Positions 9,837-63,480 of a stretch of DNA of 64,000 nucleotides are shown here, piece by piece. Made by a program: the position numbers and the translations under genes. The stretch is from a phage, in the sequence record PZ452584.1. The stretch is one strand, 5' to 3'. Position 1 is the stretch's first letter. Each line of letters opens with the position of its first letter. Below the pieces are notes generated by a model, which was given only the letters and a program-made list of their open reading frames with translations, was not told the DNA's origin and did not search any database.

Positions 9837-9851
9837 TCTTTGACGATTTAA

Positions 9852-9867
9852 GGGACCTTCGGGTCCC
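9852..9867 (+). terminator. UUCG-loop hairpin after gene 23
   Basis: GGGACC-TTCG-GGTCCC then T-rich. Confidence 0.7.
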
Positions 9868-9884
9868 TTTAGTTGTTTTTATGG

Positions 9885-9892
9885 TATAAATA
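9885..9892 (+). promoter_or_regulatory. Late promoter TATAAATA for gene 24
   Basis: Exact motif. Confidence 0.75.
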
Positions 9893-9919
9893 AATCATAT
9901 AAACCAAAAGGAAAGCGCA

Positions 9920-15234: not shown

Positions 15235-15263
15235 TAGATATATTTATTACATGGTATTTAGAC

Positions 15264-25627: not shown

Positions 25628-25681
25628 TCCTCATGTTATGTCAGTAAGACTACTATAACACAACACGAGGGACTTGTAAAC
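25628..25681 (-). repeat. 54-bp early promoter + leader cassette, copy 1
   Basis: Identical to 40285..40338. Confidence 0.9.
25652..25681 (-). promoter_or_regulatory. Early promoter (GTTTACA-17-TATAGT)
   Basis: T4 early consensus -35 GTTTAC with sigma70-like -10. Confidence 0.7.
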
Positions 25682-27738
25682 TACATTTTGAACTTTTTAG
25701 ACATTCCGTTGATGTTAACCAAAGAAGCCAAGATTTGAGAAACTTCGTTTTCCTCTTCTTTTGATTCTTCTACAAGGAATTGATTAAATCCAGCCATTGG
25801 GCGAACTTCACCAGTTTCCATTAGATGGTCGCCATCATATACTGATTCTTCTAATTGTTCAGAAGGAGGAACGATTGTACCTTCGATTAGATACTTGTTA
25901 TAAGCAGTTTCTTTCATAAAGTACGTGCTCACTTTATTAATCTTCAGTAAAATTCCACGTGGTAGAATAACTTCAGCTTCTGATGGAAATCCTGATAAAT
26001 GACCCGGAACGATAACTTTAATTCGCTCAGCTCCTTTAATTACCATACCCACGCTAGTTTCAGCATCTTCATTAGCATATGTAGAATGACTACCCATATG
26101 CATCAAATCTTCTGCATCAACAGAACCTTCTCCTTCGCCAGAAAATACTGCACCGGAATCATCTAGAGCCATATAGTTTTTACCATGCTCACCGAAGATA
26201 TTTGGTTTAAGCGATGTGGATACGAAGTTCTTGAAATAGAACATTTTGTTTTCAATGTTATGACGCAAAGTTTTAAAGGTAACTTCTTGTCCACGGTAAA
26301 GTGTAGTTCCTGGAGGAAGAACTGAACCTTTAGCGAATGCAGAATCCAACGTCTCGATGTGCTTAATAGCTCGTTCCATATATTCTTCACGGGTAGAATC
26401 TGGTTTACCCAAAAGGAACGAGTTCATTTCAACATATGAATCTGCACAATAATCTTCAATTACATCAGATTCAGCTTGAGTTAATCCTTTTGGAGTTACT
26501 TCGGTGCTTGCGTATTCATATGCCTGAGCGGCAGATTCATTAATCAATTTATAAATGCCATTCATGACAAATTGAATAATAGCTGTCTTTTCATCTGGCG
26601 TAGCTTTAGAACCTTTAACTAAATCATTGATAATTTTCTTAATAACATCAAAGCTATTAGAAATATTAATGTCAGCAAGATCGCTTAAAATTTTATCAGT
26701 TTTATAATCAAAGAATTCTTTATTCTTTAAATATTCTTGAGAACCTTGATATGTTATATCGCTCTGCAACTTGATAGATGGATCACGTAAACGCGCATGG
26801 GCTAATGCAATATGATTTCGGAAGTTTTCTAGTTCATAATCGCTAGATTTAAAACGAGAAGCACTCCTCATACCACCGATAGCTCCTTTGCTGAAGTTTG
26901 AACCAATCTGAATAACGCCAGAGTTCATTGGTCCTTCTGCTTTATATACCGGAACTTTAGATTCAAACTCTTGATATTTCTTAGCAGCGAAGCTATCACC
27001 CTGAAGTGAAGCATCAACAGTAGAATATTGAGCTTGTGCTGCTAATCGACGACTAATTTTAGTTTTCTGAATAACAGCTTGGTCCGTGCGCTTATCATTT
27101 TCTAAAGCAATAGAAGCAGCAACAGCGACAGCTTTAGGAACAGCATTACCTGTTTTAACGTCTACATAAACATCACCAACCTTTGATTCAACTTTTGTGA
27201 ATAACTCAGTTGAAATAGGAGGTACACCTGGAATGTCTTCTAAATTGGCATTTTTACGGTAAACCATAATATATGCATACTTTTTATCATAGTCCCAGAT
27301 TTCCTTTAAAAGAACATATCGACCTGCTCCTTTAGTACGTACTAAACGGTCAGCAATAACTTGCATTTGACGAGCAGCGCCATTTGTTTTACTTTTTAGT
27401 ACGCGGAATAGGCATGCGTCAATTTTATACTGTTTCATTGTTTGAAGAGCAGTATCAAAAACAGCATTAATGACGCCAATTGGATTTCCACCCAAGTTTC
27501 TAAGCTTAACCAGCGATAATTTCTCGTTGACACCTATCATTACGATATGCATCATTTTATCGCCTGGCTTAACGTTTTTATTCGTATCACCACCAGAGGT
27601 GTATGTACAAAATCTAAATCCAGGAAGCACGCTTTCTTCGCCGGCTTGAATAGCAAAAATTTGTGGTATTTTATGCTTAGGATTTAAGTTAACAACCGGC
27701 GCCGAAGCGCCGTCAAATAATTCTGTAATAAGTTCCAT
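25681..27738 (-). CDS. Alt-like ADP-ribosyltransferase paralogue (full length)
   Basis: 685 aa; N-terminal ~200 aa near-identical to Alt; Arg / STS / EAE motifs retained. Confidence 0.88.
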   Translation of the reverse strand: MELITELFDGASAPVVNLNPKHKIPQIFAIQAGEESVLPGFRFCTYTSGGDTNKNVKPGDKMMHIVMIGVNEKLSLVKLRNLGGNPIGVINAVFDTALQTMKQYKIDACLFRVLKSKTNGAARQMQVIADRLVRTKGAGRYVLLKEIWDYDKKYAYIMVYRKNANLEDIPGVPPISTELFTKVESKVGDVYVDVKTGNAVPKAVAVAASIALENDKRTDQAVIQKTKISRRLAAQAQYSTVDASLQGDSFAAKKYQEFESKVPVYKAEGPMNSGVIQIGSNFSKGAIGGMRSASRFKSSDYELENFRNHIALAHARLRDPSIKLQSDITYQGSQEYLKNKEFFDYKTDKILSDLADINISNSFDVIKKIINDLVKGSKATPDEKTAIIQFVMNGIYKLINESAAQAYEYASTEVTPKGLTQAESDVIEDYCADSYVEMNSFLLGKPDSTREEYMERAIKHIETLDSAFAKGSVLPPGTTLYRGQEVTFKTLRHNIENKMFYFKNFVSTSLKPNIFGEHGKNYMALDDSGAVFSGEGEGSVDAEDLMHMGSHSTYANEDAETSVGMVIKGAERIKVIVPGHLSGFPSEAEVILPRGILLKINKVSTYFMKETAYNKYLIEGTIVPPSEQLEESVYDGDHLMETGEVRPMAGFNQFLVEESKEEENEVSQILASLVNINGMSKKFKM

Positions 27739-27741
27739 GAT

Positions 27742-29835
27742 TTATCCTTGAACGAACTTGTAAGGCATGTTTGTAATATCTATGCAAGACGCAATAATTC
27801 CAAGAGATGATTCTACTTTCTGTTTAACATTTGATGAAACAAATGATGCAAAGTCAACTCTGTCTTCTACTTCAATATCACCTGTCATTGCAACTACTTC
27901 GCCGGTTTCCATTAGACGGTCGCCGTCATAAATTACCGATTCGGTGAGTTCTTCCGTAGTCATAACTTCAGCTTGAATGAGTTTTGTATTATTAGATGTT
28001 GTTCCGTCATTATTAGAAGCATCAGTTATTTTATTAACTTTGACCATCAATCCGCGCGGTAGAATAACTTCAGCTTCTGTTGCTATTCCGAGACTTCCTG
28101 GATATACAACATTAACTTTATGAGCTCCATCAATTGCCCATCCTATTTGAACTTTAACGTATTCAGGATTTTCTTTATACGCTCTTATTTCGTTTGGATT
28201 AATAGTTATTCCTTCTTCATTTTTATCAACTGTCAATTCATTACGAGCTTCTGGTTCTAAAAGACCAATACCAGCATGTGTAATTCCAAAACGTCCAAAA
28301 ATGATAGGAGTTAAAGAAGTAGATACAAAATTTCTGAAATAGAACACTTTATTTTTAACTAGTGCTTCGTATATAGGAGCAGTCATACTTTGAGCACGAT
28401 AAACTGTGATGCCTTCCGGTATGCGGTCACCATTTTCAAAAGCTGAATCTAAGTTATTTATAGCAGATTCAATTTCTTTTTCACTCATTACATCATATCG
28501 TTCTGGATTGTAACGACCTAAAAGAAGATTATTGATGTCTGTATATCCTGAACCACAATACTCTCTAATGCCGCGCTTTTGTGATGGAGTATATTTAGAA
28601 CCATCACGGGCAATAGTAATATCAATCATTGGACCTGCACCAATTCCGGAAAAACTATAAATCATTCGTTTGAGGAATTTAGTTTTTGCCGCATTCCAGG
28701 CATTTTTAGTTATTTCTCCCCAGACTTCATCTGACTGCCCTTTACGAGTTTTATTATGTTTATCAAGCCAATTATCTTTGTATTCTTCAAAGAATTTATT
28801 AACAGCTGCTGCGTATTTCTCTAAACATTTTATTGAAGTAGTTGGTTCATTTTTGATTGCGTTAAAAATTACATCTTTAATTTTTTCTGAAACTTCATCA
28901 ACCTCACTTTTTGAAAAGAATTTATAGTCATAGTGAAGTTCATTCGCAGTTCCTTCGGCAATAATTTTTGCTGCCTTAGTTTTAGAAGCTAATGAATTAA
29001 TTCCAAGCTTCATTTCTTCTGCTTCGGGAATTAAAGGAGCGGTAGCAGGTTTATTGAAATTAGCTGCGGTAGATTCATACTTCTGGAATAATTCACTTTC
29101 AAATCTAGAAGATTCCAATGATTGACTTTGCGCAATTGCTCTACGGGAAATTTTAACTTTAACGATTACAGCTTGGTCAGAACGTTTATCATTTTCTTGT
29201 GCAATAGATGCTGCAATTGCCTCATTTTTAGTTACTTGAGCCCCAGTATCTTTATTGATATAAACATCACCGACCTTCGATTCAACTTTAGTAAAGAGCT
29301 CGGTACTAATTTCCGGAACTCCTGGAATGTCTTCTAGTGATGCATTTTTGCGATGTATAAGAATATATGCATACTTTTTATCATAATCCCAGAGTTCCTT
29401 AAGAAGGACGTATCTGCCACCTGAACGACTACGGATAAGTCTATCAGCAATAACTTGAATTTGTCGAGCTTGACCAGCGGTTTTAGACTTAAGAATACGG
29501 AGCATACAGGCATCAATTTTATACTGACGCATAGTTTGCATTGCAACAGTAAAAACTGAATTGATATAATTAATTGGGCTTGGACCAAGACCTTTCAATT
29601 TAGCAATTGAACCTTTAGCAGTTAATGTAAAAGGAACAATATGCATCATTTTATCGCCCATTTTTAAATCGCGATTAGTATCACCTCCAGATGTATAGGT
29701 ACATAAACGAAAGCCTGGTTGTTCAATTGCATCATCAACATGAACTGAAAAAATTTGTGGTATTTTCTTCTTTGGATTTAAGTTTGTAATCGGAAGAGTA
29801 GTATCTTCGTCAAATAATTCTGTAATGAGTTCCAT
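27742..29835 (-). CDS. alt: Alt ADP-ribosyltransferase (capsid-packaged, modifies host RNA polymerase)
   Basis: 697 aa from ATG 29835; N-terminus MELITELFDEDTTLPITNLNPKK; R-STS-EAE motifs; minus-strand late promoter at 29859. Confidence 0.93.
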   Translation of the reverse strand: MELITELFDEDTTLPITNLNPKKKIPQIFSVHVDDAIEQPGFRLCTYTSGGDTNRDLKMGDKMMHIVPFTLTAKGSIAKLKGLGPSPINYINSVFTVAMQTMRQYKIDACMLRILKSKTAGQARQIQVIADRLIRSRSGGRYVLLKELWDYDKKYAYILIHRKNASLEDIPGVPEISTELFTKVESKVGDVYINKDTGAQVTKNEAIAASIAQENDKRSDQAVIVKVKISRRAIAQSQSLESSRFESELFQKYESTAANFNKPATAPLIPEAEEMKLGINSLASKTKAAKIIAEGTANELHYDYKFFSKSEVDEVSEKIKDVIFNAIKNEPTTSIKCLEKYAAAVNKFFEEYKDNWLDKHNKTRKGQSDEVWGEITKNAWNAAKTKFLKRMIYSFSGIGAGPMIDITIARDGSKYTPSQKRGIREYCGSGYTDINNLLLGRYNPERYDVMSEKEIESAINNLDSAFENGDRIPEGITVYRAQSMTAPIYEALVKNKVFYFRNFVSTSLTPIIFGRFGITHAGIGLLEPEARNELTVDKNEEGITINPNEIRAYKENPEYVKVQIGWAIDGAHKVNVVYPGSLGIATEAEVILPRGLMVKVNKITDASNNDGTTSNNTKLIQAEVMTTEELTESVIYDGDRLMETGEVVAMTGDIEVEDRVDFASFVSSNVKQKVESSLGIIASCIDITNMPYKFVQG

Positions 29836-29858
29836 CATATCCTCTCTAGTGTTTATTC

Positions 29859-33776: not shown

Positions 33777-33829
33777 AACATTTTCCTCAGTAAAGGGCCG
33801 AAGCCCTTTTCTTTTGTTTGTGTAAGATA

Positions 33830-37703: not shown

Positions 37704-38906
<1,203 letters not shown>

Positions 38907-41956: not shown

Positions 41957-43135
41957 TTAAAAGTATTTTTTAAAACTCATCATAACTTTATCATCAACAT
42001 CATTATCAATCTGTGCAACAAGGTAAGATGACAGTTCTACTTCTTGTGGCGCGGATTGAACATTATCAGAATTAAGATATTCACGAATCCAAGGATATGG
42101 ATGTTTAACCGGAGCATCGGTAATTGGGCATGGAAGACCACACTGTTTCATACGAGATACAGTTAAGTAATCAATAAAGCTCCACATGCTATTTGTATTT
42201 AATCCAGGAACATCGCCATCTTTAAATAAATGAACTGCCCAATCTTTTTCTTGGCGGTTAACTTCCATGAAAATATCAACTGCTTCTTGTTCACACTCTT
42301 GAGCAATTTTAACCCATTCATCACCATCAGTGCCAAGTTGAAGTTGACGAATAATATATTGTGTGCCTTTAAGGTGAAGCTGTTCATCACGTGCAATGAA
42401 CTTCATAATCTTGGCATTACCTTCCATGATTTCCATGTTCTTATGGAAGTTAAAGGTACATGCGAAAGATACATAAAAACGAATAGCTTCCAATGCGTTG
42501 ATTACATGCAAACAGAGGTAAAGAGATTTCATTAAAGCACGTTTAGCTTCGGCTTCTTGTTTAATAGCTCTGTTTAAACGAAAGTCGGCATCAGGAGATT
42601 CTTTAGCTAGTTCTACAAATTCTTTAGCATTTTCCCATTCACGGGTTTTAATCAGAACATCATCATAATAACGTCCAATTGATTCAGCACGTTTCATAAT
42701 AGCTTCATCTAATACAATCTCATCAAATACCTTTGACGGATCAGTATAAAGATTTCGCATGATATGAGTATATGAACGACTATGAATAGTTTCACTAAAA
42801 GTCCATGTAGCAACCCATGTATCAAGGCTTGGGTCTGAAATTAATGACATAAGTACAGCAGACGGCGCACGACCCTGAATGCTATCCAAAAGTGATTGAT
42901 ACTTCAGATTATTAGTAAAAATATTCTGCTGATACTGAGGAAGCTTATTAAACTGTGCAGCATCCATCATTAAGTTTACTTCTTCCGGGCGCCAGAAAAA
43001 TGATAAGGACTTTTCTGTGAGTTCTTCAAATACTCGATGCCGTTGAATATCATAACGCGCAATACCAAGACCTGAACCAAAAAACATAGGTTCTTTTAAA
43101 ACATCAACTGGGTTTGTATTAAAAACTGTGCTCAT
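41957..43135 (-). CDS. nrdB: Ribonucleotide reductase beta subunit, uninterrupted
   Basis: 392 aa continuous ORF; no intron. Confidence 0.95.
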   Translation of the reverse strand: MSTVFNTNPVDVLKEPMFFGSGLGIARYDIQRHRVFEELTEKSLSFFWRPEEVNLMMDAAQFNKLPQYQQNIFTNNLKYQSLLDSIQGRAPSAVLMSLISDPSLDTWVATWTFSETIHSRSYTHIMRNLYTDPSKVFDEIVLDEAIMKRAESIGRYYDDVLIKTREWENAKEFVELAKESPDADFRLNRAIKQEAEAKRALMKSLYLCLHVINALEAIRFYVSFACTFNFHKNMEIMEGNAKIMKFIARDEQLHLKGTQYIIRQLQLGTDGDEWVKIAQECEQEAVDIFMEVNRQEKDWAVHLFKDGDVPGLNTNSMWSFIDYLTVSRMKQCGLPCPITDAPVKHPYPWIREYLNSDNVQSAPQEVELSSYLVAQIDNDVDDKVMMSFKKYF

Positions 43136-43186
43136 AAATTTTCCGCTTAGTTAATAGTTAGTGACTCGTCCGTGAGTCAAATTATA

Positions 43187-45451
43187 TCATAATTTACAGG
43201 ATGAACAATCTTCAGCTTTTGGAGTTTCTATTTCATAATCATCAGTACCAGAACCATCACGGGTATTATGATAATAGAAATTTTTAATGCCATAATACCA
43301 TCCGTATAGCATATCATCAATCATTATTGACATTGGAACCTTTCCTTTTGGAAAAATCTGTGGGTCATAATATGTATTCGCCGAAGCTGATTGACATACC
43401 CATTTCAGCATAATAGCTACCTGCGTAAGATAAGGTTTATTACCTTTCTTAGCTAATTTCCATGTATAATCATATAGGTCTATGTTATGTTCAATATTGG
43501 GCACGACTTGATTAAAGGAACCCTCTTTTGATTCTTTAACAGAGACTGGTCCACGTGGAGGCTCGATACCGTTTGTACTGTTAGAAACTTGGGAAGATGA
43601 CTCACATGGCATAAGTGCTGATAGTGTGCTATTACGGATGCCAAAGAGCTTAAGGTCTTCCCGCAGCGACGACCAGTCACAAACGTATTTTGGAGCTGCG
43701 ATTTGGTCAATCTTTTTATTGTACCAGTCGATAGGTAATTCGCCTCGAGACCAACGAGTGTCTGAATAATATTCGCAAGGTCCTTTTTCTTTGGCGAGCT
43801 TAATGGATGCTTTAATGAGTCCATACTGTAATCTCTCAAATAGTTCATGTGTTAAATCGTTAGCATCTTCATAAGAAGCAAAGTTACTTGCCAGCCAAGC
43901 TGCATAGTTAGTAACACCTACACCAAGGTTACGACGCTTTTTAGCTTTTTCTGCTTCAGGAACTGGATATCCTTGGTAATCCAAAAGATTATCAAGAGCA
44001 CGAACTTGAACTTCTGCCAATTCATTAATTTTATCTTGGTCTTGCCAATCGAAGTTATCCAACACAAATGCAGATAACGTGCACAATCCAATTTCAGCAT
44101 CAGGGCTATTCACATCATTTGTTGGAATAGCAATTTCACAACACAAGTTACTCTGACGAATAGGTGCCTTTTCACGAATAAACGGAGTATAGTTATTCGT
44201 ATTATCAATGAACTGCACATAAATCCTTGCTGTTCCTGAGCGTTCAGTCATGAGCAATTCAAATAGTTCACGGGCTTTAATACGCTTTTTACGAATATTA
44301 GGGTCTTTTTCTGCTGCTTCGTATAATTCACGGAAACGGTCTTGGTCTTTAAAATAAGAATAATAAAGCTCACCACCCATTTCATGCGGACTGAACAAAG
44401 TAATGTAATCATTCTTTCCGAATCGTTCCATCATCAAATCATTCAGCTGAACACCATAATCCATATGACGAATGCGGTTTTCTTCTACGCCTTTGTTATT
44501 TTTCAAAACGAGAAGATTTTCAACTTCCAAATGCCAAATAGGATAATAAGCAGTAGCAGCGCCGCCACGAATTCCACCCTGTGAACATGATTTAACTGCG
44601 GTCTGAAAATGTTTCCAAAAAGGAATAACACCAGTATGGCGTACTTCACCCATGCCAATCTTAGAACCTTCGGCACGAATCATACCAACGTTAATACCAA
44701 TTCCAGCGCGTTTAGAGATATATTCAACAATTGAAGCGGAAGCCTTATTGATAGACTTTAATGAATCACCTGCCTCAATAACAACGCATGAACTAAACTG
44801 TCGAGTCGGAGTACGACAACCAGCCATAATAGGAGTTGGCAATGAAATCTGTCGAGTAGATACTGCTTCATAAAAACGGATAACATGTTTTAATCTATCA
44901 ACAGGTTCATCTTGATGCAGTGCCATTCCAATAGTCATAAATGCAAACTGTGGAGTTTCATAAATTTGACCAGTGGTTTTATCTTTGACTAGATATTTTT
45001 CTTTTAATTGCATCGCCCCGGAATAAGTAAATTCCATATCCCGCTCGTGCTTAATTTTTGATTCTAAAAATGTAATTTCTTCTGCTGAATATTTTGACAA
45101 TAATTCAGGGTCATATTTACCTTCATTTACACAGTAAGAAATATGGTCAATAAATGAACGTGGTTCATACTGCCCATAAACATGCTTACGAAGAGCAAAC
45201 ATTAAACAGCGTGCAGCTACATATTGATAATCAGGTTCTTCAACCGAAATAGAATTCGCAGCGGCCTTAATGACAATAGTCTGAATATCATCAGTTGTCA
45301 TTCCATCACGGAGATATGATTTAATATTTTCATATAATTCATAAGGATCTACTGATGTTCCCTCAGCTGCCCAAGATAAAACTTTAATAATTTTTTGTGG
45401 ATCAAAGCTCTGAGAAACACCACTACTTTTGATAACATTAATTAATTGCAT
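43187..45451 (-). CDS. nrdA: Ribonucleotide reductase alpha subunit
   Basis: 754 aa; class I RNR large subunit. Confidence 0.96.
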   Translation of the reverse strand: MQLINVIKSSGVSQSFDPQKIIKVLSWAAEGTSVDPYELYENIKSYLRDGMTTDDIQTIVIKAAANSISVEEPDYQYVAARCLMFALRKHVYGQYEPRSFIDHISYCVNEGKYDPELLSKYSAEEITFLESKIKHERDMEFTYSGAMQLKEKYLVKDKTTGQIYETPQFAFMTIGMALHQDEPVDRLKHVIRFYEAVSTRQISLPTPIMAGCRTPTRQFSSCVVIEAGDSLKSINKASASIVEYISKRAGIGINVGMIRAEGSKIGMGEVRHTGVIPFWKHFQTAVKSCSQGGIRGGAATAYYPIWHLEVENLLVLKNNKGVEENRIRHMDYGVQLNDLMMERFGKNDYITLFSPHEMGGELYYSYFKDQDRFRELYEAAEKDPNIRKKRIKARELFELLMTERSGTARIYVQFIDNTNNYTPFIREKAPIRQSNLCCEIAIPTNDVNSPDAEIGLCTLSAFVLDNFDWQDQDKINELAEVQVRALDNLLDYQGYPVPEAEKAKKRRNLGVGVTNYAAWLASNFASYEDANDLTHELFERLQYGLIKASIKLAKEKGPCEYYSDTRWSRGELPIDWYNKKIDQIAAPKYVCDWSSLREDLKLFGIRNSTLSALMPCESSSQVSNSTNGIEPPRGPVSVKESKEGSFNQVVPNIEHNIDLYDYTWKLAKKGNKPYLTQVAIMLKWVCQSASANTYYDPQIFPKGKVPMSIMIDDMLYGWYYGIKNFYYHNTRDGSGTDDYEIETPKAEDCSSCKL

Positions 45452-52945: not shown

Positions 52946-55900
52946 ATGGCCGAGATTAAAAGAAAGTTCAGAGCAGAAGACGGTCTGGACGCAGGTGGTG
53001 ATAAAATAATCAACGTAGCTTTAGCTGATCGTGCCGTAGGAACTGACGGTGTTAACGTTGATTACTTAATTCAAGAAAACACAGTTCAACAATACGATCC
53101 AACTCGTGGATATTTAAAAGATTTTGTAATCATTTATGATAACCGCTTTTGGGCTGCTATAAATGATATTCCGAAACCAGCAGGAGCTTTTAATAGCGTA
53201 CGCTGGAGAGCATTACGTACTGATGCAAACTGGACAACTGTTTCATCAGGACCTTATCAATTAAAGTCAGGCGAATCAATTTCAGTTGATACTGCAGCCG
53301 GTAATGACATTACATTTACTTTACCATCTACCCCAATTGACGGTGATACTATCGTTCTCCAAGATATTGGAGGAAAACCTGGAGTTAATCAAGTTTTAAT
53401 TACAGCTCCGGTACAAAGCATTGTAAATTTTAGAGGTCAGCAAGTACGTTCAGTACTAATGACTCATCCAAAATCACAGATAGTTTTAATTTTTAGTAAT
53501 CGTCTGTGGCAAATGTATGTCGCTGATTATAGTAGAGAAGCTGTAGTTGTAACGCCTGCGAGTCTCTATCAGGCTCAATCAAACGATTTTATCGTACGTA
53601 GATTTACTTCTGCTGCACCAATTAATGTTAAACTTCCAAGATTTGCTAATCATGGCGATATTATTAATTTCGTTGATTTAGATAAATTAAATCCTCTTTA
53701 TCACACAATTGTTACTACATATGATGAAACAACTTCAGTACAAGAAGTTGGAACTCATTCCATTGAAGGTCGTACATCGATTGACGGTTTCTTGATGTTT
53801 GATGATAATGAGAAATTGTGGAGATTGTTTGACGGGGATAGTAAAGCGCGTTTACGCATTATAACGACTAATTCTAATATTCGTCCAAATGAAGAAGTTA
53901 TGGTATTTGGTGCGAATAACGGAACAGCTCAGACAATTGAACTTCAGCTTCCGACTGATATTTCTGTTGGTGATACTGTCAAAATTTCCATGAATTACAT
54001 GAGAAAAGGACAAACGGTTAAAATCAAAGCTGCAGGTGAAGATAAAATTGCTTCTTCAGTTCAATTGCTGCAATTCCCAAAACGCTCAGAATATCCACCT
54101 GAAGCTGAGTGGGTTACAGTTCAAGAATTAGTTTTTAACGGTGAAACTAATTATGTTCCAGTTTTGGAGCTTGCTTATATTGAAGATTCTGATGGAAAAT
54201 ATTGGGTTGTACAGCAAAACGTTCCAACTGTAGAAAGAGTAGATTCTTTAAATGATTCTACTAGAGCAAGATTAGGGGTAATTGCTTTAGCTACGCAAGC
54301 TCAAGCTAATGCTGATTTAGAAAATTCTCCACAAAAAGAATTGGCAATTACTCCAGAAACGTTAGCTAATCGTACTGCTACAGAAACTCGTAGAGGTATT
54401 GCAAGAATAGCAACTACTGCTCAAGTTAACCAGGATACTACATTCTCTTTTGCTGATGACCTTATCATTACTCCTAAAAAGCTGAATGAAAGAACGGCTA
54501 CTGAAACTCGTAGAGGTATTGCTGAAATTGCTACACAGCAAGAAACTAATACAGGAACCGATGATACTACAATCATTACTCCTAAAAAGCTTCAAGCTCG
54601 TCAAGGTTCTGAATCATTATCTGGTATTGTAACCTTTGTATCTACTGCAGGTGCTACTCCAGCTTCTAGCCGTGAATTAAATGGTACGAATGTTTATAAT
54701 AAAAACACTAATAATTTAGTTGTTTCGCCTAAAGCTTTGGATCAGTATAAAGCTACTCCAACGCAGCAAGGTGCAGTAATTTTAGCAGTTGAAAGTGAAG
54801 TAATTGCTGGACAAAGTCAGGAAGGATGGGCAAATGCTGTTGTAACGCCAGAAACGTTACATAAAAAGACATCAACTGATGCAAGAATTGGTTTAATTGA
54901 AATTGCTACACAAAGTGAAGTTAATACAGGAACTGACTATACACGTGCAGTCACTCCTAAAACTTTAAATGACCGTAGAGCAACTGAAAGTTTAAGTGGT
55001 ATAGCTGAAATTGCTACGCAAGTTGAATTCGACGCAGGCGTCGACGATACTCGTATCTCTACACCATTAAAAATTAAAACCAGATTTAATAGTACTGATC
55101 GTACTTCTGTTGTTGCTCTATCTGGATTAGTTGAATCAGGAACTCTCTGGGACCATTATACACTTAATATTCTTGAAGCAAATGAGACACAGCGTGGTAC
55201 ACTTCGTGTAGCTACACAGGTCGAAGCTGCTGCAGGAACACTAGATAATGTTTTAATAACTCCTAAAAAGCTTTTAGGTACTAAATCTACCGAATCGCAA
55301 GAAGGTGTTATTAAAGTTGCAACTCAGTCTGAAGCTGTGGCTGGAACGTCAGCAAATACTGCTATATCTCCAAAAAATTTAAAATGGATTGTGCAGAGTG
55401 AACCTACCTGGGCAGCTACTACTGCGATAAGAGGTTTTGTTAAAACTTCATCTGGTTCAATTACATTCGTTGGTAATGATACAGTCGGTTCTACTCAAGA
55501 TTTAGAACTGTATGAGAAAAATAGCTATGCAGTATCACCATATGAATTAAACCGTGTATTAGCAAATTATCTGCCGTTAAAAGCAAAAGCTGTAGATAGT
55601 AATTTATTGGATGGTCTAGATTCATCTCAGTTCATTCGTAGGGATATTGCACAGACGGTTAATGGTTCACTAACCTTAACCCAACAAACGAATCTGAGTG
55701 CCCCTCTTGTATCATCTAGTACTGGTGAATTTGGTGGTTCATTGGCCGCTAATAGAACATTTACCATCCGTAATACAGGAGCCCCGACCAGTATCGTTTT
55801 CGAAAAAGGTCCTGCATCTGGGGCAAATCCTGCACAGTCAATGAGTATTCGTGTATGGGGTAACCAATTTGGCGACGGTAGTGATACAACACGTTCTACT

Positions 55901-56815
55901 GTATTTGAAGTTGGCGATGATACATCTTATCACTTTTATTCTCAACGTAATAAAGATGGTAATATAGCGTTTAGCATTAATGGTACTGTAATGCCAATAA
56001 ATGTTAATGCTTCAGGAACATTGAATGCAAATGGTGTAGCAACATTTGGTAATTCAGTCACTGCAACTGGTGAAATTATTTCTCGAAGCGCAAATGCTTT
56101 CCGTGCTATTAACGGAAATTATGGTTTCATTGTTCGCAATGATGGATCAGTAACGAATTTTATGCTTACTGCATCGGGTGATCAGACTGGCGGATTTAAT
56201 GGATTGCGTCCTTTAGCTATCAATAATGCATCTGGTCAAGTAACGATTGGTGAAAGCTTAATTATTGCCAAAGGTGCTACTATAAATTCAGGCGGTTTGA
56301 CTGTTAACTCGAGAATTCGTTCTCAGGGTACTAAAACATCTGATTTATACACCCGCGCTCCAACATCTGATACAGTAGGATTCTGGTCAATTGATATTAA
56401 CGATTCAGCCACTTATAATCAATTCCCTGGTTATTTTAAAATGGTTGAAAAAACTAATGAAGTGACTGGACTTCCATACTTAGAACGTGGTGAAGAGGTT
56501 AAATCTCCTGGTACACTGACTCAGTTTGGTAACACACTTGATTCGCTTTACCAAGATTGGATTACTTATCCAACAACACCAGAAGCGCGCACCACTCGCT
56601 GGACACGTACATGGCAGAAAACCAAAAACTCTTGGTCAAGTTTTGTTCAGGTATTTGACGGAGGTAACCCTCCTCAGCCATCTGATATCGGTGCTTTACC
56701 ATCTGATAATGCTATAATGGGTAATCTTACTATTCGTGATTTCTTACGAATTGGTAATGTTCGCATTATTCCTGACCCAGTGAATAAAACTGTTAAATTT
56801 GAATGGGTTGAATAA
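52946..56815 (+). CDS. 34: Long tail fiber proximal subunit
   Basis: 1289 aa; late promoter at 52904; internal ~38-aa repeats. Confidence 0.96.
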   Translation: MAEIKRKFRAEDGLDAGGDKIINVALADRAVGTDGVNVDYLIQENTVQQYDPTRGYLKDFVIIYDNRFWAAINDIPKPAGAFNSVRWRALRTDANWTTVSSGPYQLKSGESISVDTAAGNDITFTLPSTPIDGDTIVLQDIGGKPGVNQVLITAPVQSIVNFRGQQVRSVLMTHPKSQIVLIFSNRLWQMYVADYSREAVVVTPASLYQAQSNDFIVRRFTSAAPINVKLPRFANHGDIINFVDLDKLNPLYHTIVTTYDETTSVQEVGTHSIEGRTSIDGFLMFDDNEKLWRLFDGDSKARLRIITTNSNIRPNEEVMVFGANNGTAQTIELQLPTDISVGDTVKISMNYMRKGQTVKIKAAGEDKIASSVQLLQFPKRSEYPPEAEWVTVQELVFNGETNYVPVLELAYIEDSDGKYWVVQQNVPTVERVDSLNDSTRARLGVIALATQAQANADLENSPQKELAITPETLANRTATETRRGIARIATTAQVNQDTTFSFADDLIITPKKLNERTATETRRGIAEIATQQETNTGTDDTTIITPKKLQARQGSESLSGIVTFVSTAGATPASSRELNGTNVYNKNTNNLVVSPKALDQYKATPTQQGAVILAVESEVIAGQSQEGWANAVVTPETLHKKTSTDARIGLIEIATQSEVNTGTDYTRAVTPKTLNDRRATESLSGIAEIATQVEFDAGVDDTRISTPLKIKTRFNSTDRTSVVALSGLVESGTLWDHYTLNILEANETQRGTLRVATQVEAAAGTLDNVLITPKKLLGTKSTESQEGVIKVATQSEAVAGTSANTAISPKNLKWIVQSEPTWAATTAIRGFVKTSSGSITFVGNDTVGSTQDLELYEKNSYAVSPYELNRVLANYLPLKAKAVDSNLLDGLDSSQFIRRDIAQTVNGSLTLTQQTNLSAPLVSSSTGEFGGSLAANRTFTIRNTGAPTSIVFEKGPASGANPAQSMSIRVWGNQFGDGSDTTRSTVFEVGDDTSYHFYSQRNKDGNIAFSINGTVMPINVNASGTLNANGVATFGNSVTATGEIISRSANAFRAINGNYGFIVRNDGSVTNFMLTASGDQTGGFNGLRPLAINNASGQVTIGESLIIAKGATINSGGLTVNSRIRSQGTKTSDLYTRAPTSDTVGFWSIDINDSATYNQFPGYFKMVEKTNEVTGLPYLERGEEVKSPGTLTQFGNTLDSLYQDWITYPTTPEARTTRWTRTWQKTKNSWSSFVQVFDGGNPPQPSDIGALPSDNAIMGNLTIRDFLRIGNVRIIPDPVNKTVKFEWVE

Positions 56816-56823
56816 GAGGTATT

Positions 56824-57942
56824 ATGGAAAAATTTATGGCAGAGTTTGGACAAGGATATGTCCAAACGCCATTTTTATCGGAAAGCAATTCAGTAAGATA
56901 CAAAATAAGTATAGCGGGTTCTTGCCCGCTTTCTACTGCAGGACCACCATATGTTAAATTTCAGGATAATCCTGTAGGAAGTCAAACATTTAGCGCAGGC
57001 CTTCATTTAAGAGTTTTTGACCCTTCCACCGGAGCATTAGTTGATAGTAAGTCATATGCTTTTTCGACTTCAAATGATACTACATCTGCTGCCTTTGTTA
57101 GTTTCATGAATTCTATTTCAAGCAATAGACTTGTTGCTATATTAACTAACGGAAAGGTTAATTTTCCTCCTGAAGTACTATCTTGGTTAAGAACAGCAGG
57201 AACGTCTGCTTTTCCATCTGACTCTGTATTGTTAAGATTTGATGTATCATATGCTGCTTTTTACACTTCTTCTAAAAGAGCTATTGCATTAGAGCATGTT
57301 AAATTAAGTAATAGAAAAAGCACAGATGATTATCAAACTATTTTAGATGTTGTATTTGACAGTTTAGAAGACGTTGGAGCTACCGGGTTTCCAAGAAGAA
57401 CATATGAAAGCGTTGAGCAATTCATGTCAGCAGTTGGTGGAACTAATAACGAAATTGCGCGTCTACCAACTTCATCCGCGATAAGTAAACTTTCTGACTA
57501 CAATTTAATTCCTGGTGATGTGCTTTATCTTAAAGCACAACTATATGCTGATGCAGATTTACTCGCTCTTGGAACTACGAATATATCTATTAGATTTTAT
57601 AATGAATCGGATGGATATATTTCTTCAACACACGCTGAGTTTACTGGTCAAGCTGGGTCATGGGAATTAAAGGAAGACTATGTAGTTGTTCCTGAAAATG
57701 CAGTAGGATTTACGATATATGCACAAAGAACTGCACAAGCAGGTCAAGGTGGCATGAGGAATTTAAGTTTTTCTGAAGTATCAAGAAATGGCGGAATTTC
57801 AAAACCTGCAGAATTTGGCGTCAATGGTATTCGAGTTAATTATGTCTGTGAATCTGCTTCACCTCCAGATATAATGGTACTTCCTACACAAGCATCGTCT
57901 AAAACTGGTAAAGTGTTTGGACAAGAATTTAGAGAAGTATAA
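56824..57942 (+). CDS. 35: Long tail fiber hinge connector
   Basis: 372 aa. Confidence 0.92.
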   Translation: MEKFMAEFGQGYVQTPFLSESNSVRYKISIAGSCPLSTAGPPYVKFQDNPVGSQTFSAGLHLRVFDPSTGALVDSKSYAFSTSNDTTSAAFVSFMNSISSNRLVAILTNGKVNFPPEVLSWLRTAGTSAFPSDSVLLRFDVSYAAFYTSSKRAIALEHVKLSNRKSTDDYQTILDVVFDSLEDVGATGFPRRTYESVEQFMSAVGGTNNEIARLPTSSAISKLSDYNLIPGDVLYLKAQLYADADLLALGTTNISIRFYNESDGYISSTHAEFTGQAGSWELKEDYVVVPENAVGFTIYAQRTAQAGQGGMRNLSFSEVSRNGGISKPAEFGVNGIRVNYVCESASPPDIMVLPTQASSKTGKVFGQEFREV

Positions 57943-57947
57943 ATTGA

Positions 57948-57965
57948 GGGAGCCTTCGGGTTCCC
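57948..57965 (+). terminator. Hairpin after gene 35
   Basis: GGGAGCC-TTCG-GGTTCCC then T-run. Confidence 0.7.
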
Positions 57966-57974
57966 TTTTTTCTT

Positions 57975-57982
57975 TATAAATA
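57975..57982 (+). promoter_or_regulatory. Late promoter TATAAATA for gene 36
   Basis: Exact motif. Confidence 0.7.
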
Positions 57983-58005: not shown

Positions 58006-58671
58006 ATGGCTGATTTAAAAGTAGGTTCAACAACTGGAGGCTCTGTCATTTGGCATCAAGGAAATTTTCCATTGAATCCAGCCGGTGACGATGTACTCTA
58101 TAAATCATTTAAAATATATTCAGAATATAATAAACCACAAGCTGATGATAACGATTTCGTTTCTAAAGCTAATGGTGGTACTTATGCATCAAAGGTAACA
58201 TTTAACGGCGGTGTCCAAGTCCCGTATGCTCCAAACATCATGAACCCATGCGGTATTTATGGGGGTAACGGTGATGGTGCTACTTTTGATAAAGCAAATA
58301 TCGATATTGTTTCGTGGTATGGCGTAGGATTTAAATCGTCATTTGGTTCAACAGACCGAACTGTTGTAATTAATACACGCAATGGTGATATTAGTACAAA
58401 AGGTACAGTGGCTGCATCAAAACAAGTAAAAAGTGATGCGGCTGCTCCTATAGCAGCGAATGATCTTACTAGAAAGGACTATGTTGATGGAGCAATAAAT
58501 ATTGTTACAGCAAACGCAAACTCTAGGGTATTACGCTCTGGAGACACTATGACAGGAAATTTAACTGCGCCAAACCTTTTTTCACAGAATCCTGCATCTC
58601 AACCCTCACATGTTCCACGATTTGATCAAATTGTTATTAAGGATTCTGTTCAAGATTTCGGCTATTATTAA
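58006..58671 (+). CDS. 36: Long tail fiber distal connector
   Basis: 221 aa; late promoter at 57975. Confidence 0.92.
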   Translation: MADLKVGSTTGGSVIWHQGNFPLNPAGDDVLYKSFKIYSEYNKPQADDNDFVSKANGGTYASKVTFNGGVQVPYAPNIMNPCGIYGGNGDGATFDKANIDIVSWYGVGFKSSFGSTDRTVVINTRNGDISTKGTVAASKQVKSDAAAPIAANDLTRKDYVDGAINIVTANANSRVLRSGDTMTGNLTAPNLFSQNPASQPSHVPRFDQIVIKDSVQDFGYY

Positions 58672-58679
58672 GAGGACTT

Positions 58680-61600
58680 ATGGCTACTTTAAAACAAATA
58701 CAATTTAAAAGAAGCAAAACCGCAGGAGCACGTCCTGCCGCTTCAGTATTAGCCGAAGGTGAATTGGCTATAAACTTAAAAGACCGTGTACTTTTTACTA
58801 AAGATGACCAAGGAAATATTATTGATCTTGGTTTTGCTAAGGGCGGTAGTATTGACGGGAATGTTATTCATATAGGAAACTATAACCAAACTGGTGATTA
58901 TACTTTAAATGGCGCATTAACTCAGACAGGTAATTTTAATTTAACTGGTATTGCTCGAGTAACTCGCGATATTATTGCCGCTGGGCAGATTATGACTGAA
59001 GGCGGAGAACTTATTACAAAAAGTTCAGGTACAGCACATGTTCGTTTTTTCGATGGCAATAGCCGCGAACGTGGAATCATTTATGCCCCGGCTAATGATG
59101 GTTTAACTACACAAGTACTTAATATCAGGGTTCAAGACTATGCCGCTGGTAGCGAAAGCACTTATGCATTTTCAGGCAGTGGCCTATTTACTTCACCTGA
59201 AGTATCAGCATGGAAATCTATTTCGTCTCCACAAATTCTGACCGACAAAGTTATTACAAACGGGAAGAAGACAGGCGATTATGATATCTATTCATTATCA
59301 AATAACACTCCATTGGCAGAAAGCGAAACGGCTATTAACCACCTCCGTGTTATGCGAAATGCTGTAGGAGCAGGTATTTTCCACGAAGTTAATGTTAATG
59401 ACGGAATAACCTGGTATTCCGGAGATGGCTTAAACACTTATCTTTGGTCGTTTAACTGGTCCGGTGGATTGAAAGCGGGTCATTCTATTTCTGTAGGTCT
59501 TCCTCACGGTTCTAAAAATTATTCAGAAATGGGCACGGCTTCTATTGCTTTAGGAGATAATGATACTGGGTTTCAATGGCATCAGGACGGATATTATTTT
59601 AGCGTTAATAATGGAATAAAAACGTTTTTATTTAGTCCCAGCGAAACAACTAGCCTAAGAAAATTTGTAGCTGGATATTCTACTAACGGAACCGATTTAA
59701 CTACTCCTCCGACTGAAAACTATGCTCTTGCTACTGTCGTGACATATCACGATAATAACGCGTTTGGAGATGGCCAGACTCTTTTAGGATATTATCAAGG
59801 CGGTAATTATCATCACTATTTCCGTGGTAAAGGTACTACAAACATTAATACTCACGGCGGTTTGTTAGTTACTCCCGGTAATGTAGATGTGGTCGGCGGC
59901 ATGGTTACCATTGATGGTAAAAATTATGCTTCTAGTGTGCTTTTTAAAGGAAATACTACAGGATATAGTTCAGTTGATAATATAGAGCTCAAAGTTTGGG
60001 GTGACACTTTTAATACGGTAGGTGGTACTCGTAAAAACGTAATGGAAACATCTGATGCTACTGGCTGGATGCATTATATTCAACGAACTACAGCAGGTAA
60101 AGTTGAGTCCTATTTAAATGGTACCATGAATGTAAATGAAAGCATCAACGTCAGTAAAGAAGTTAACGCCTCTGGCACTATTGCTAGTAATGCTGTCAAT
60201 GCGCTTCGCATTTGGAATGCAGATTATGGAGCCATTTTTAGACGTTCAGAAGGCAGTCTTCATATTATTCCAACTGCTTATGGTGAAGGCAAAAATGGTG
60301 ATATCGGTCCACTTCGCCCGTTTAGTATGGCTTTAGATACCGGTAAAGTTACTATTCCAGATTTACAATCAAGTTACAATACGTTCGCTGCGAACGGCTA
60401 TATTAAATTTGTTGGTCATGGAGCGGGTGCTGGCGAATATGATATTCAATACGACCAAGCAGCTCCCATTTTCCAGGAAATCGATGATGATGCCGTAAGT
60501 AAATATTACCCAATTGTTAAGCAAAAATACCTTCAAGGTAAAGCTGTGTGGTCTTTAGGTACTGAAATAGAATCTGGTACTTTTATTTTACATCATTTAA
60601 AAGAAGATGGAACACAAGCCCATACCTCAAGATTTAATGCTGATGGTACAGTTAACTTCCCTGATAACGTGCAGGTTGGTGGGGGTGAAGCTACTATTGG
60701 CAAAAATGGTAACATCTGGTCTGATATCTGGAAAACGTTTACTTCTGCCGGTGATGTAACCAATCTTCTTGGTGCTGTCTATAGCCGTGTTTCAAAAGAA
60801 GGCGATACGCTGACAGGCCGCTTAACTATTAATGCCAACTCGGATGCTATTGTTATTAACAGTGCTGCAACCGAATCTGGTTATGTGAAAGGACAAAAAG
60901 CAGGCGTTGATAACTGGTATGTAGGTAATGGCGGCGCCGATAATGCTCTATCGTTTTATAGTTTCAGAACCAATTCAGGCGTTAATATTCATAATAGTGG
61001 AGAAATTGCTTTAGCTCCTCAAGGGTCGGATACTTTTTATTTTAATAGGGACCGTCTTTATATAAAGGGTTCGCACTGGGTTGCACATAAATCTGGCGCT
61101 TGGGCCGACCAATGGGGCTTAGAAGCTCCTGTGTTTGTGGATTTTGGTAATGTTGGTAATGATAGTTATTATCCTATTATTAAAGGAAGATCTGGTATTA
61201 CGAATGAAGGATACATATCTGGTGTTGATTTTGGTATGCGACGCATTACTAATAACTGGGCACAAGGTATTATCCGTGTAGGTAATCAGGAAAACGGTTC
61301 CGACCCACAAGCTATCTATGAATTTCACCACAATGGAGTTATGTATGTTCCTAACATGGTTAAAACCGGAGCAAGATTATCAGCTGGCGCTGGTGACCCG
61401 GTGTGGCAAGGCGCATGCGTTGCTATTGGTGATAATGATACCGGATTAGTTCATGGTGGTGATGGGCGAATTAATATGGTTGCAAATGGAGTGCATATTG
61501 CTTCATGGTCTTCATCCCATCATGAACACACTGGGCTTTGGGGCACCGACGGCGCGTTTTGGACTGAAACCGGAAGAGCTATTATTTCATTTGGACATTT

Positions 61601-61988
61601 AATTCAACAGAATGACAGCTATTCAACATATGTCCGCGATGTTTATGTCCGCTCTGATATTCGTGTTAAAAAGAACCTCGTTAAATTTGAAAATGCTTCT
61701 GAGAAGCTTTCTAAAATTAACGGTTACACTTATATGCAGAAGCGAGGCCTAGATGAAGAAGGTAATCAGAAATGGGAACCTAACGCCGGTTTGATAGCTC
61801 AAGAAGTTCAAGCTATTTTACCAGAATTAGTTGAAGGTGACCCGGATGGTGAAGCTTTACTTCGTTTGAACTATAATGGTATAATTGGTTTAAATACAGC
61901 TGCAATCAATGAGCATACTGCAGAAATTGCAGAACTTAAGTCAGAGATTGAAGAGCTTAAAAAATTAGTTAAATCATTGTTAAAATAA
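58680..61988 (+). CDS. 37: Long tail fiber distal subunit with C-terminal intramolecular chaperone domain
   Basis: 1102 aa; C-terminal SDIRVKKN motif followed by coiled coil, typical of auto-cleaving chaperone domains. Confidence 0.92.
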
Positions 61989-61993
61989 TAAGA

Positions 61994-62007
61994 GGGGCTT
62001 CGGCCCC
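61994..62007 (+). terminator. Hairpin between 37 and 38 (possible attenuator)
   Basis: GGGGC-TTCG-GCCCC. Confidence 0.55.
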
Positions 62008-62019
62008 TTGGAGGTTTAT

Positions 62020-62793
62020 ATGGCAGTTGAAGGACCGTGGGTAGGATGGTCTGCGAGGGTACAAACTGGAGACCCTTGGATGGGTGGTGCCGCGCAGAGA
62101 TTGAGAATGGGAATTCCGTTTTGGATGAGTAATATGATAGGTCGATCTGTTGAAGTAATTCACACCCTTGGAGCAGACCATAACTTCAATGGTCAATGGT
62201 TCCGAGACAGATGTTTTGAGGCAGGTAGTACACCTATAGTGTTTAATATCACTGGAGATTTAGTATCATATTCTAAAGATGTTCCTTTATTCTTCATGTA
62301 TGGAGATACACCGAATGAATATGTTCAGTTGAATATACACGGCGTAACGATGTATGGACGTGGCGGTAATGGCGGTAGCAATAGTCCTGGCTCAGCTGGA
62401 GGTCATTGTATTCAAAACGATATTGGTGGGAGACTAAGAATTAATAATGGTGGAGCTATTGCAGGCGGCGGTGGCGGCGGTGGCGGTGGTAACAGGGGTA
62501 GACTAGTATTTGGTGGTGGCGGTGGTCGCCCATTCGGCGGTGGCGGGTCTTCCTCTCATATGAGTTCTGCTGCAACCGCTGGCACCATTTACGCTCCGGG
62601 TGCAGGATCTGTCGGTGAGGGGTCTCTTAGTGCATATACAGGCGGGTCTGGTGGTGAAGTTGGCTCCGCAGGAGGTAGATGTAATACTCACGGTACCGGT
62701 ACAGAATATGACGGCGGTGCTGCTGGTTATGCCGTCATAGGGTCTGCTCCAACGTGGATAAATGTTGGAGCAATATATGGTCCAAGAGTATAA
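62020..62793 (+). CDS. 38: T2-type receptor-recognising adhesin with glycine-rich motifs
   Basis: 257 aa from ATG 62020 (GGAGG SD); poly-Gly blocks [22 protein letters not shown]. Confidence 0.9.
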
Positions 62794-62823
62794 TTTGAAT
62801 AAATATCCTTAAAAGGAGGGTCT

Positions 62824-63480
62824 ATGGCAGCACCTAGAATATCATTTTCGCCCTCTGATATTCTATTTGGTGTTCTAGATCGCTTGTTCAAAGATAACGC
62901 TACCGGGAAAGTTCTTGCTTCCCGGGTAGCTGTCGTAATTCTTTTATTTATGATGGCGATTGTTTGGTATAGGGGAGATAGTTTCTTTGAGTACTATAAG
63001 CAATCAAAGTATGAAACATACAGTGAAATTATTGAAAAGGAAAGAACTGCACGCTTTGAATCTGTCGCCCTGGAACAACTCCAGATAGTTCATATATCAT
63101 CTGAGGCAGACTTTAGTGCGGTATATTCTTTCCGCCCTAAAAACTTAAACTATTTTGTTGATATTATAGCATACGAAGGAAAATTACCTTCAACAATAAG
63201 CGAAAAATCACTTGGAGGATATCCTGTTGATAAAACTATGGATGAATATACAGTTCATTTAAATGGACGTCATTATTATTCCAACTCAAAATTTGCTTTT
63301 TTACCAACTAAAAAGCCTACTCCCGAAATAAACTACATGTACAGTTGTCCATATTTTAATTTGGATAATATCTATGCTGGAACGATAACCATGTACTGGT
63401 ATAGAAATGATCATATAAGTAATGACCGCCTTGAATCAATATGTGCTCAGGCGGCCAGAATATTAGGAAGGGCTAAATAA
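62824..63480 (+). CDS. t: Holin
   Basis: 218 aa; single N-terminal TM and large periplasmic domain; matches T4 T. Confidence 0.95.
   Translation: MAAPRISFSPSDILFGVLDRLFKDNATGKVLASRVAVVILLFMMAIVWYRGDSFFEYYKQSKYETYSEIIEKERTARFESVALEQLQIVHISSEADFSAVYSFRPKNLNYFVDIIAYEGKLPSTISEKSLGGYPVDKTMDEYTVHLNGRHYYSNSKFAFLPTKKPTPEINYMYSCPYFNLDNIYAGTITMYWYRNDHISNDRLESICAQAARILGRAK

Follow-up and report, generated by a model that had tools for sequence, protein, structure and literature searches.

The 3' end of a 64,000-nt stretch of phage DNA (sequence record PZ452584.1, hereafter the window) carries a complete Tequatrovirus long-tail-fibre operon, identified from the list of open reading frames (ORFs) and Pfam matches, and this analysis concerns its two distal genes, 37 and 38. 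Gene 37 encodes the precursor of the distal fibre subunit, gp37, and is followed by gene 38, whose product gp38 is a receptor-binding adhesin; 31 nt separate the gene 37 stop codon from the gene 38 ATG, and holin gene t lies downstream of gene 38 (Table 1). A sequence-only reading had drawn attention to positions 61650–62793, an interval that begins at the R991 codon of gp37 and ends with the gene 38 stop codon, and had described it as a T2-type receptor module made of a gp37 with a cleavable C-terminal chaperone domain and a glycine-rich gp38. The features on which that description was built are all present: a gp37 of 1102 residues, the motif SDIRVKKN followed by an 18-residue coiled-coil segment, and a 257-residue glycine-rich protein encoded by the next gene. 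Translation of gene 38 was taken to begin with the ATG at position 62020, which follows a GGAGG Shine–Dalgarno sequence (62010..62014, + strand) by 5 nt. An upstream TTG start at 62008, which opens the 261-residue version in the ORF list, was set aside, as all homologues begin with MAV.

Table 1 Features of the long-tail-fibre operon and of the gene 37–38 receptor module, in window coordinates
Feature	Coordinates	Strand	Description
Gene 34	52946-56815		Proximal subunit
Gene 35	56824-57942		Connector
T4-type late-promoter motif TATAAATA	57975..57982	+	Exact match, upstream of gene 36
Gene 36	58006-58671	+	Distal connector, 221 aa; T4-like left flank; Pfam Phage_T4_gp36, E 1.3e-47
Gene 37	58680-61988	+	Distal subunit precursor, 1102 aa, 119.1 kDa; PHROG 1699 ('long tail fiber protein distal subunit') over full length
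Predicted mature gp37	58680..61652	+	aa 1-991, 106.7 kDa; cleavage position from the S16 alignment
Predicted autoproteolytic site R991|S992	61650..61655	+	S16 alignment
Intramolecular chaperone, Peptidase_S74	61653..61985	+	aa 992-1102, 111 aa, 12.4 kDa
18-residue heptad-repeat segment	61920..61973	+	gp37 aa 1081-1098, part of the long helix that ends the chaperone
UUCG-tetraloop hairpin AGGGGC-UUCG-GCCCCU	61993..62008	+	Between gene 37 stop and gene 38 ribosome-binding site
Gene 38	62020-62793	+	Receptor-binding adhesin, 257 aa, 25.8 kDa
gp38 N-terminal attachment domain	62020..62139	+	aa 1-40; W7, W20, W35; Pfam Gp38_N
Glycine-rich motifs and hypervariable loops	62356..62727	+	gp38 aa 113-236; aligned to S16 and PP01 polyglycine domains
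Holin gene t	62824-63480	+	Right flank; Pfam Phage_holin_T, E 4.3e-118

The C-terminus of gp37 is an intramolecular chaperone (IMC) of the Peptidase_S74 family. Residues 992–1051 match PF13884 (Peptidase_S74, 'chaperone of endosialidase') with an E-value of 7.5e-13, covering profile positions 1–57 of 58 and scoring 49 bits against a curated cut-off of 22; the GP38 and Gp38_N matches described below likewise exceed their curated Pfam cut-offs, and all three scores are well outside what chance would give. The domain occupies the extreme C-terminal end of the protein (aa 992–1102 of 1102), with the fibre part upstream, and opens with SDIRVKKN, whose first residue (aa 992) is encoded at nt 61653. 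Over aa 911–1102, gp37 aligns with the gp37 construct of phage S16 (6f45_A, E = 3.6e-44); aa 911–991 match the S16 gp37 tip, the alignment runs on through the IMC, and window residues DVYVR^SDIRVKK fall on S16 DLNVS^SDRRIKK, where the caret marks the cleavage point. Because of this alignment, cleavage is predicted between R991 and S992, which would yield a 991-residue mature gp37 and a 111-residue IMC fragment. S16 gp37, once trimerised, cleaves off its own last 113 residues at this motif, exposing the surface on which gp38 docks (PMC7917993). For T2 and T6, a passage of PMC3157838 that cites Drexler 1986 describes proteolytic removal of the gp37 C-terminus and capping of the fibre by gp38.

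A homologue search with the C-terminal 222 residues of gp37 returned 23 proteins, mostly fragments and all with PF13884, a set that is sufficient for an alignment and gives no view of the breadth of the family. In an alignment of gp37 aa 881–1102 with 20 of these database homologues (21 sequences in all), Ser992, Asp993, and Lys997 do not vary. Their spacing corresponds to the Ser-x4-Lys motif of the Peptidase S74 family, and Ser992 and Lys997 form a putative catalytic dyad. The AlphaFold2 (AF2) monomer model of aa 881–1102, for which this alignment served as input, has predicted local distance difference test (pLDDT) values of 78–96 in its IMC half and ends in one long helix (query residues 185–221, gp37 aa 1065–1101) that contains the heptad segment. 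A Foldseek search of this model against the PDB placed the 'intramolecular chaperone auto-processing' (ICA) domain of MyRF first (7dc3, E = 3.4e-5, TM score 0.67 on the target), followed by the IMC of the endosialidase endoNF (3gw6, E about 0.06). Only the IMC half of the model is usable, and the fold test is carried by the MyRF match. The window IMC belongs to the same Pfam family as those of endoNF (3GW6) and MyRF (7DC3); it shares their Ser-x4-Lys at the start of the domain, their C-terminal position, and their long terminal helix, and its predicted fold agrees with theirs. Identity in the structural alignment is ~24% to MyRF ICA and ~12% to endoNF, whose match is weak. The window IMC differs from endoNF in what it serves: there the IMC sits on an enzymatic tailspike, here on a β-helical fibre tip that would then take a separate adhesin. 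Pfam match, motif, and modelled fold all place an S74-like domain at the gp37 C-terminus, and the class of auto-proteolytic chaperone proposed by the sequence-only reading holds, with the cleavage itself assigned by homology.

Immediately upstream of the IMC, gp37 aa 881–991 (~110 residues, 61320–61652) form the tip, whose aligned part matches that of S16 and which is predicted to be the gp38-docking region. The closest overall relatives of the gene pair are phages Ac3 (AF060870, OK040907) and VEc74 (MT932213), which share the gene order and have proteins of near-equal length (1103 and 257 residues). The tip is the least conserved part of gp37 relative to the Ac3 group, though the N-terminal segment of gp38, its partner, is 98–99% conserved. 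Identity to the tip of FL12 gp37 is 22%. A His-rich segment within the tip, which includes SSSHHEHTG, is for the most part missing from S16 gp37, which lacks 12 of its residues. The closest matches over aa 881–1102 are two metagenomic fragments, P0001 and P0002, at 88–89%.

Gp38 has the domain organization of a T2-class adhesin. It matches Pfam Gp38_N (PF21721; 70.3 bits, E = 1.3e-19) over aa 1–40 and the full GP38 profile (PF05268; 233.9 bits, E = 2.5e-69) over aa 45–257, and it belongs to PHROG 2056, 'host specificity' (E = 1.6e-104). Residues 1–254 align with S16 gp38 (6f45_D, E = 6.5e-52), and the protein also matches the receptor-binding domain of PP01 gp38 (9v85, E = 1.6e-78). The identity to S16 gp38 is only 47%, and W7, W20, and W35 of the window protein are aligned to S16 W7, W20, and W36. 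In the S16 system (PDB 6F45; Dunne et al. 2018), a self-cleaving IMC comes after a trimeric gp37 tip, as predicted for the window, and gp38 is composed of a Trp-prong attachment domain, a β-helix, and a polyglycine-II sandwich; the gp37 trimer has hydrophobic pockets in which the three Trp 'prongs' are anchored (PMC6851490). Among the phages compared, the N-terminal segment of gp38 co-varies with the type of gp37 tip. T4 gp38 has no detectable similarity to the window protein (BLASTP E = 0.92), and gp38 gave no Pfam or PHROG match to the Tfa-like chaperone family. The earlier call of a T2-class adhesin rather than a T4-type chaperone is borne out by this comparison, by the S16 and PP01 structure matches, and by the 47% identity to T2 gp38.

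Glycine makes up 25% of gp38 and 37% of aa 110–240, and the local G+C content rises to 0.51 because of this glycine-rich coding sequence. The longest glycine runs span nine (aa 149–157), five (aa 165–169), and four residues (aa 173–176), and further runs lie at aa 115–119, 127–128, 136–137, 144–145, 208–212, 218–219, and 232–233. In the alignments the glycine motifs are conserved and the intervening segments variable, and aa 113–236 are predicted to form a polyglycine-II sandwich with its receptor-contact loops.

A UUCG-tetraloop hairpin lies between the two genes and, in all the phages compared, delimits gene 38 on its left side. In its 46-nt context the minimum free energy is -14.1 kcal/mol with a z-score of -1.3, which is not energetically exceptional. 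The hairpin is kept in every T-even phage examined (T2, FL12, BF15, T6, and T4), and the stem changes preserve pairing, with GAGGGC...GCCCTC in T2 and FL12 and GGGCC...GGCCC in BF15. It is a candidate for an RNA stability or processing element, or for a recombination anchor in the exchange of gene 38. Another UUCG hairpin of this kind, with a T-run behind it, occurs after gene 35 (57946-57967).

On the strength of the assigned domains, the conservation of catalytic and docking residues, the modelled fold, and the kinship to phages of known receptor, genes 37 and 38 very probably encode the receptor-recognizing distal end of the long tail fibre of a Tequatrovirus, built in the widespread adhesin (T2/S16-class) format. 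In the mechanism that we propose, gp37 would be made as a 1102-residue precursor, and its last 111 residues, the S74-type IMC, would drive trimerisation and folding of the β-helical tip. The IMC would then cut itself off between R991 and S992 in an autoproteolytic step that depends on Ser992 and Lys997, exposing the trimeric gp37 tip. One gp38 monomer would dock onto this surface through its N-terminal helical bundle (Trp7, Trp20, and Trp35), and its glycine-rich motifs would fold into a polyglycine-II sandwich that presents the hypervariable loops to an outer-membrane protein, most likely OmpA.

Several points weigh against this assignment. The cleavage of gp37, the 3:1 stoichiometry, and the receptor are all carried over by homology. 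The tip is only 76–82% identical to that of the close Ac3-group relatives compared and, being obligately trimeric, is poorly modelled as a monomer (AF2 pLDDT <50). The structural match to the endoNF IMC is weak (E 0.06, with a high root-mean-square deviation) because the disordered N-terminal half of the AF2 model was included in the Foldseek search.

The receptor prediction rests on the binding half of gp38. Over aa 110–257, the window protein differs from the OmpA-dependent adhesins of FL12 and EV240 at seven and nine of 148 residues, respectively, and from that of FL18, also an OmpA binder, at 20; the Tsx-dependent FL23 protein differs at 33 positions, including two indels. Identity in the binding half is 94–95% to FL12 and EV240, 89% to FL20, and 85% to FL18, and the hypervariable-loop (HVS) lengths of the window protein equal those of FL12, EV240, and FL18. 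FL12, FL18, and FL20, which belong to the 'type 2' OmpA-binding gp38 subgroup of Lutz et al. 2025, lose infectivity on ompA deletion (PMC12032242), and the EV240 gp38 transfers OmpA specificity when moved into a Tsx phage (bioRxiv 10.64898/2026.04.02.716166). By its loop sequences the window gp38 groups with 'type 2', and its receptor is probably the E. coli protein OmpA. S16, by comparison, binds Salmonella OmpC.

The close OmpA adhesins differ from the window protein in other respects. FL12 and EV240 gp38 both have 259 residues, two more than the window protein, and both differ from it by G174A, S183A, A184G, A243T, and I247Q; the FL12 protein also has a T2/T6-like N-terminal attachment domain, paired with a different gp37 tip. 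These differences bear on the receptor call and tell against OmpA: G174 and I247 of the window gp38 are unlike all three OmpA-proven adhesins (FL12, EV240, and FL18), S183 and A243 are unlike FL12 and EV240, and a single loop substitution, Q206L in RB68 gp38, suffices to switch the receptor from OmpF to OmpW (bioRxiv 10.64898/2026.04.02.716166). An adhesin of the architecture described here could then recognize Tsx, another porin, or lipopolysaccharide. The C-terminal half of gp38 is still 80% identical to that of the Tsx-dependent FL23, and the type 2 OmpA adhesins are phylogenetically near the Tsx binders, from which they are thought to derive (PMC12032242). A literature search yielded no receptor assignment for Ac3, whose gp38 is 97% identical, and Ac3 does not infect O157:H7 (PMC6027323). 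Both indels that separate Tsx from OmpA adhesins are nonetheless of the OmpA type in the window protein, with a short NRGRL loop and a long GEGSLSAY loop, and together with the closeness of the binding half to those of FL12 and EV240 they make a receptor other than OmpA the less favoured possibility, with perhaps a minority chance of being right. There is also a slim prospect that residues G174, S183, A184, A243, and I247 shift or extend the receptor or OmpA-variant range, with a possible contribution from the gp37-tip allele, which is new and at most 82% identical to the GenBank relatives compared; we liken such a shift to the single-residue switch of RB68.

Beyond the module itself, homology to T4 is 91–98% over most of the rest of the window, breaks off at 58,846, near gene 37 codon 56, and begins again at 62,799, leaving a non-T4 cassette from 58,847 to 62,798. 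Ac3 is 92.3% identical over the cassette, with gp38 97.3% and gp37 84.5% identical in amino acid sequence; the corresponding values for VEc74 are 90.1%, 96.5%, and 85.9%. In sliding 200-nt windows, T2 and T4 give no more than fragmentary DNA matches there. T2 gp38 is 47% and T2 gp37 31% identical, and in T4, gp38 is unrelated and gp37 30% identical. By sequence, the cassette thus belongs to the Ac3/VEc74 lineage, and the label 'T2-type' stands for its architecture and fails for its sequence. T2 was also considered as a close relative or donor and rejected, since for gp37 it is no closer than T4.

Within the class, T2 (AP018813) has a gp37 with a YIRSDIR cleavage motif, which is processed, and a gp38 adhesin with glycine-rich motifs (PMC3157838). 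The motif YIRSD.R is present in both T2 and T6 gp37, and T6 gp38, like that of T2, is an adhesin. T2 gp37 is longer (1341 residues), and T2 gp38 (262 residues) has a different N-terminal attachment domain that begins MAIVGVPGWIG. The receptor of T2 is FadL/OmpF. T4 carries its genes at the same genome position, and the first ~56 codons of gene 37, together with genes 36 and t, are conserved with the window; the T4 gp37 shaft (aa 1–640) is 36% identical to the window gp37. T4 gp38 is an unrelated Tfa-like chaperone, and T4 gp37 lacks the S74 domain and has a receptor-binding tip of its own.

The phage that best matches gp37 changes along the protein. VEc74 is best over aa 61–380 (98%); Ac3 over aa 381–560 (100%, with VEc74 at 73%); VEc74 and FL23 over aa 561–700 (89%, with Ac3 at 55%); and FL18 over aa 701–880 (87%). 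Ac3 has patches of 55–73% identity at aa 561–700 and 701–880, and VEc74 at aa 381–560 and 701–880. Identity in the close Ac3-group relatives is 76–82% over aa 881–991 and 95–97% over the IMC (aa 992–1102); for Ac3 and VEc74 themselves the tip is 80–82% and the IMC 96–97% identical to the window, and neither the intergenic hairpin nor the ribosome-binding site differs. The shift of the best-matching phage from segment to segment indicates repeated recombination. Positions 60350–61650 have no match above 83.5% nucleotide identity anywhere in the phage collection, and the exact gp37 and gp38 sequences are absent from a collection of 15 billion proteins; both are new alleles. Gp38 itself is modular. 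In FL12 and BF15 gp38, a window-like receptor-binding half is joined to an N-terminal attachment segment of T2/T6 type, which goes with a different gp37 tip, and FL23 gp38 combines a window-like N-terminal segment with a Tsx-type binding half.

This mosaic structure could mean that the window phage, its genome otherwise T4-like, newly acquired the module from a T2-like donor, with the junctions at ~58,850 and 62,800 marking a recent host-range swap. The abrupt loss and return of T4 homology, the fragmentary T4 and T2 matches between the junctions, and the succession of best-matching phages along gp37 (VEc74, Ac3, FL23, and FL18) would fit such an event, as would a gp36 that is T4-like beside an Ac3-like gp37 and gp38. 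Gp36 is 93.7% identical to T4, 80% to Ac3, and 79% to T2, and Ac3 differs from the window in having a T2-like gp36. The low gp37 and gp38 identities speak against T2 as the donor, however, and VEc74 already joins the same T4-like gene 36 to the same cassette in the same place. VEc74 is 94–99% identical over much of the cassette, and among full-length matches to the 24.7-kb backbone upstream it has the highest identity (96.4%). The adhesin format is, moreover, the majority state in the group, with T4 the odd one out: it is described as predominant in the T4 superfamily (PMC3157838; PMC6851490), and tblastn found homologues of the gp38 adhesin in 842 phage records and of T4-type gp38 in 297. A recent swap is therefore improbable. 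The mosaic junction suggested by the sequence-only reading is real relative to T4 and is not peculiar to the window phage. The pattern argues instead for an old, shared cassette that recombination within its genes keeps re-assorting, a kind of shuffling on record for this locus and for Ac3.

Two further patches of mixed ancestry lie upstream. In gene 34 (55600-56200), the window is T4-like to about 55,900 and then Ac3-like, and VEc74 matches throughout. In gene 36 (58100-58400), the window resembles T4 and VEc74 (91–96% nucleotide identity), with Ac3 and T2 at 27–71%.

The cleavage of gp37 is predicted here rather than observed, and the S74 domain might in principle be a decayed remnant that stays uncleaved on the mature fibre. 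This is very unlikely. The Ser/Asp/Lys motif and other family-invariant residues are intact, the high identity of the IMC among Ac3-group relatives beside a far more divergent tip indicates purifying selection on the domain, and an IMC left in place would cover the gp38 docking surface (PMC7917993). A T4-type arrangement, in which the gp37 C-terminus is itself the adhesin and gp38 an assembly chaperone absent from the virion, has nothing in its favour beyond gene order and gene name and was rejected as next to impossible, given the lack of similarity between the two gp38 proteins, a gp37 alignment to T4 that stops at ~aa 640 with the T4 needle-tip domain absent, and the presence of both the GP38 adhesin and S74 domains.

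The IMC-bearing gp37 and its polyglycine gp38 adhesin are real, already known biology, as are their gene order and mosaic evolution, and the module offers nothing new in mechanism. Knowledge of gp37 processing goes back to 1986, that of the Ac3 cassette to 1998, and that of the modular gp38 design to 2011; the homologous S16 gp37–gp38 complex was solved at atomic level in 2018. The value of the analysis lies mainly in annotation, in that a common adhesin-type fibre tip is recognized and a testable OmpA prediction is made from sequence alone, which is useful for choosing or engineering phages.

The promoter motif upstream of gene 36 is likely the start of a 36-37-38 late transcript, judging from established knowledge of T4 late promoters. 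The motif occurs 19 times in the whole window (1–64000) against 8.6 expected by chance, and two copies lie directly 5' of gene 34 (52904) and gene 36 (57975). On the right flank, the gene t product is 99.5% identical to that of T4. Neither a tRNA gene nor an Rfam family at the gathering threshold turned up in scans of the entire window.

Elsewhere in the window, several loci differ from T4. The homing-endonuclease genes segD, segE, and mobE and the nrdB group I intron with I-TevIII are absent by local megablast, and the flanking genes are joined directly at 9847-9905, 15250-15270, 42459-42462, and 43135-43191. At 33806/33807, ~780 bp of T4 (129,475-130,258; genes 30.7 and 30.8) is missing, and near pseT a 295-bp stretch (38608-38904) has no T4 counterpart. 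The Hoc head-decoration protein (12817-14523, - strand) has 568 residues, compared with a T4 hoc of 1131 nt (about 376 residues); the locus is 576 bp longer than in T4, corresponding to two extra ~96-residue Ig-like repeats (TTLAVTP...VSLTVNKK units). A single GenBank phage record, A6-6 (93.3%), matches this hoc in one piece, and the other best full-coverage matches fall into two pieces spanning about 1419 nt. Finally, the alt region contains tandem ORFs of 685 and 698 residues (25681-27738 and 27742-29838, - strand), where T4 has one alt gene with alt.-1/-2 remnants; ~2.7 kb of the window here has no megablast match to T4, and several relatives are annotated with two ADP-ribosyltransferases.

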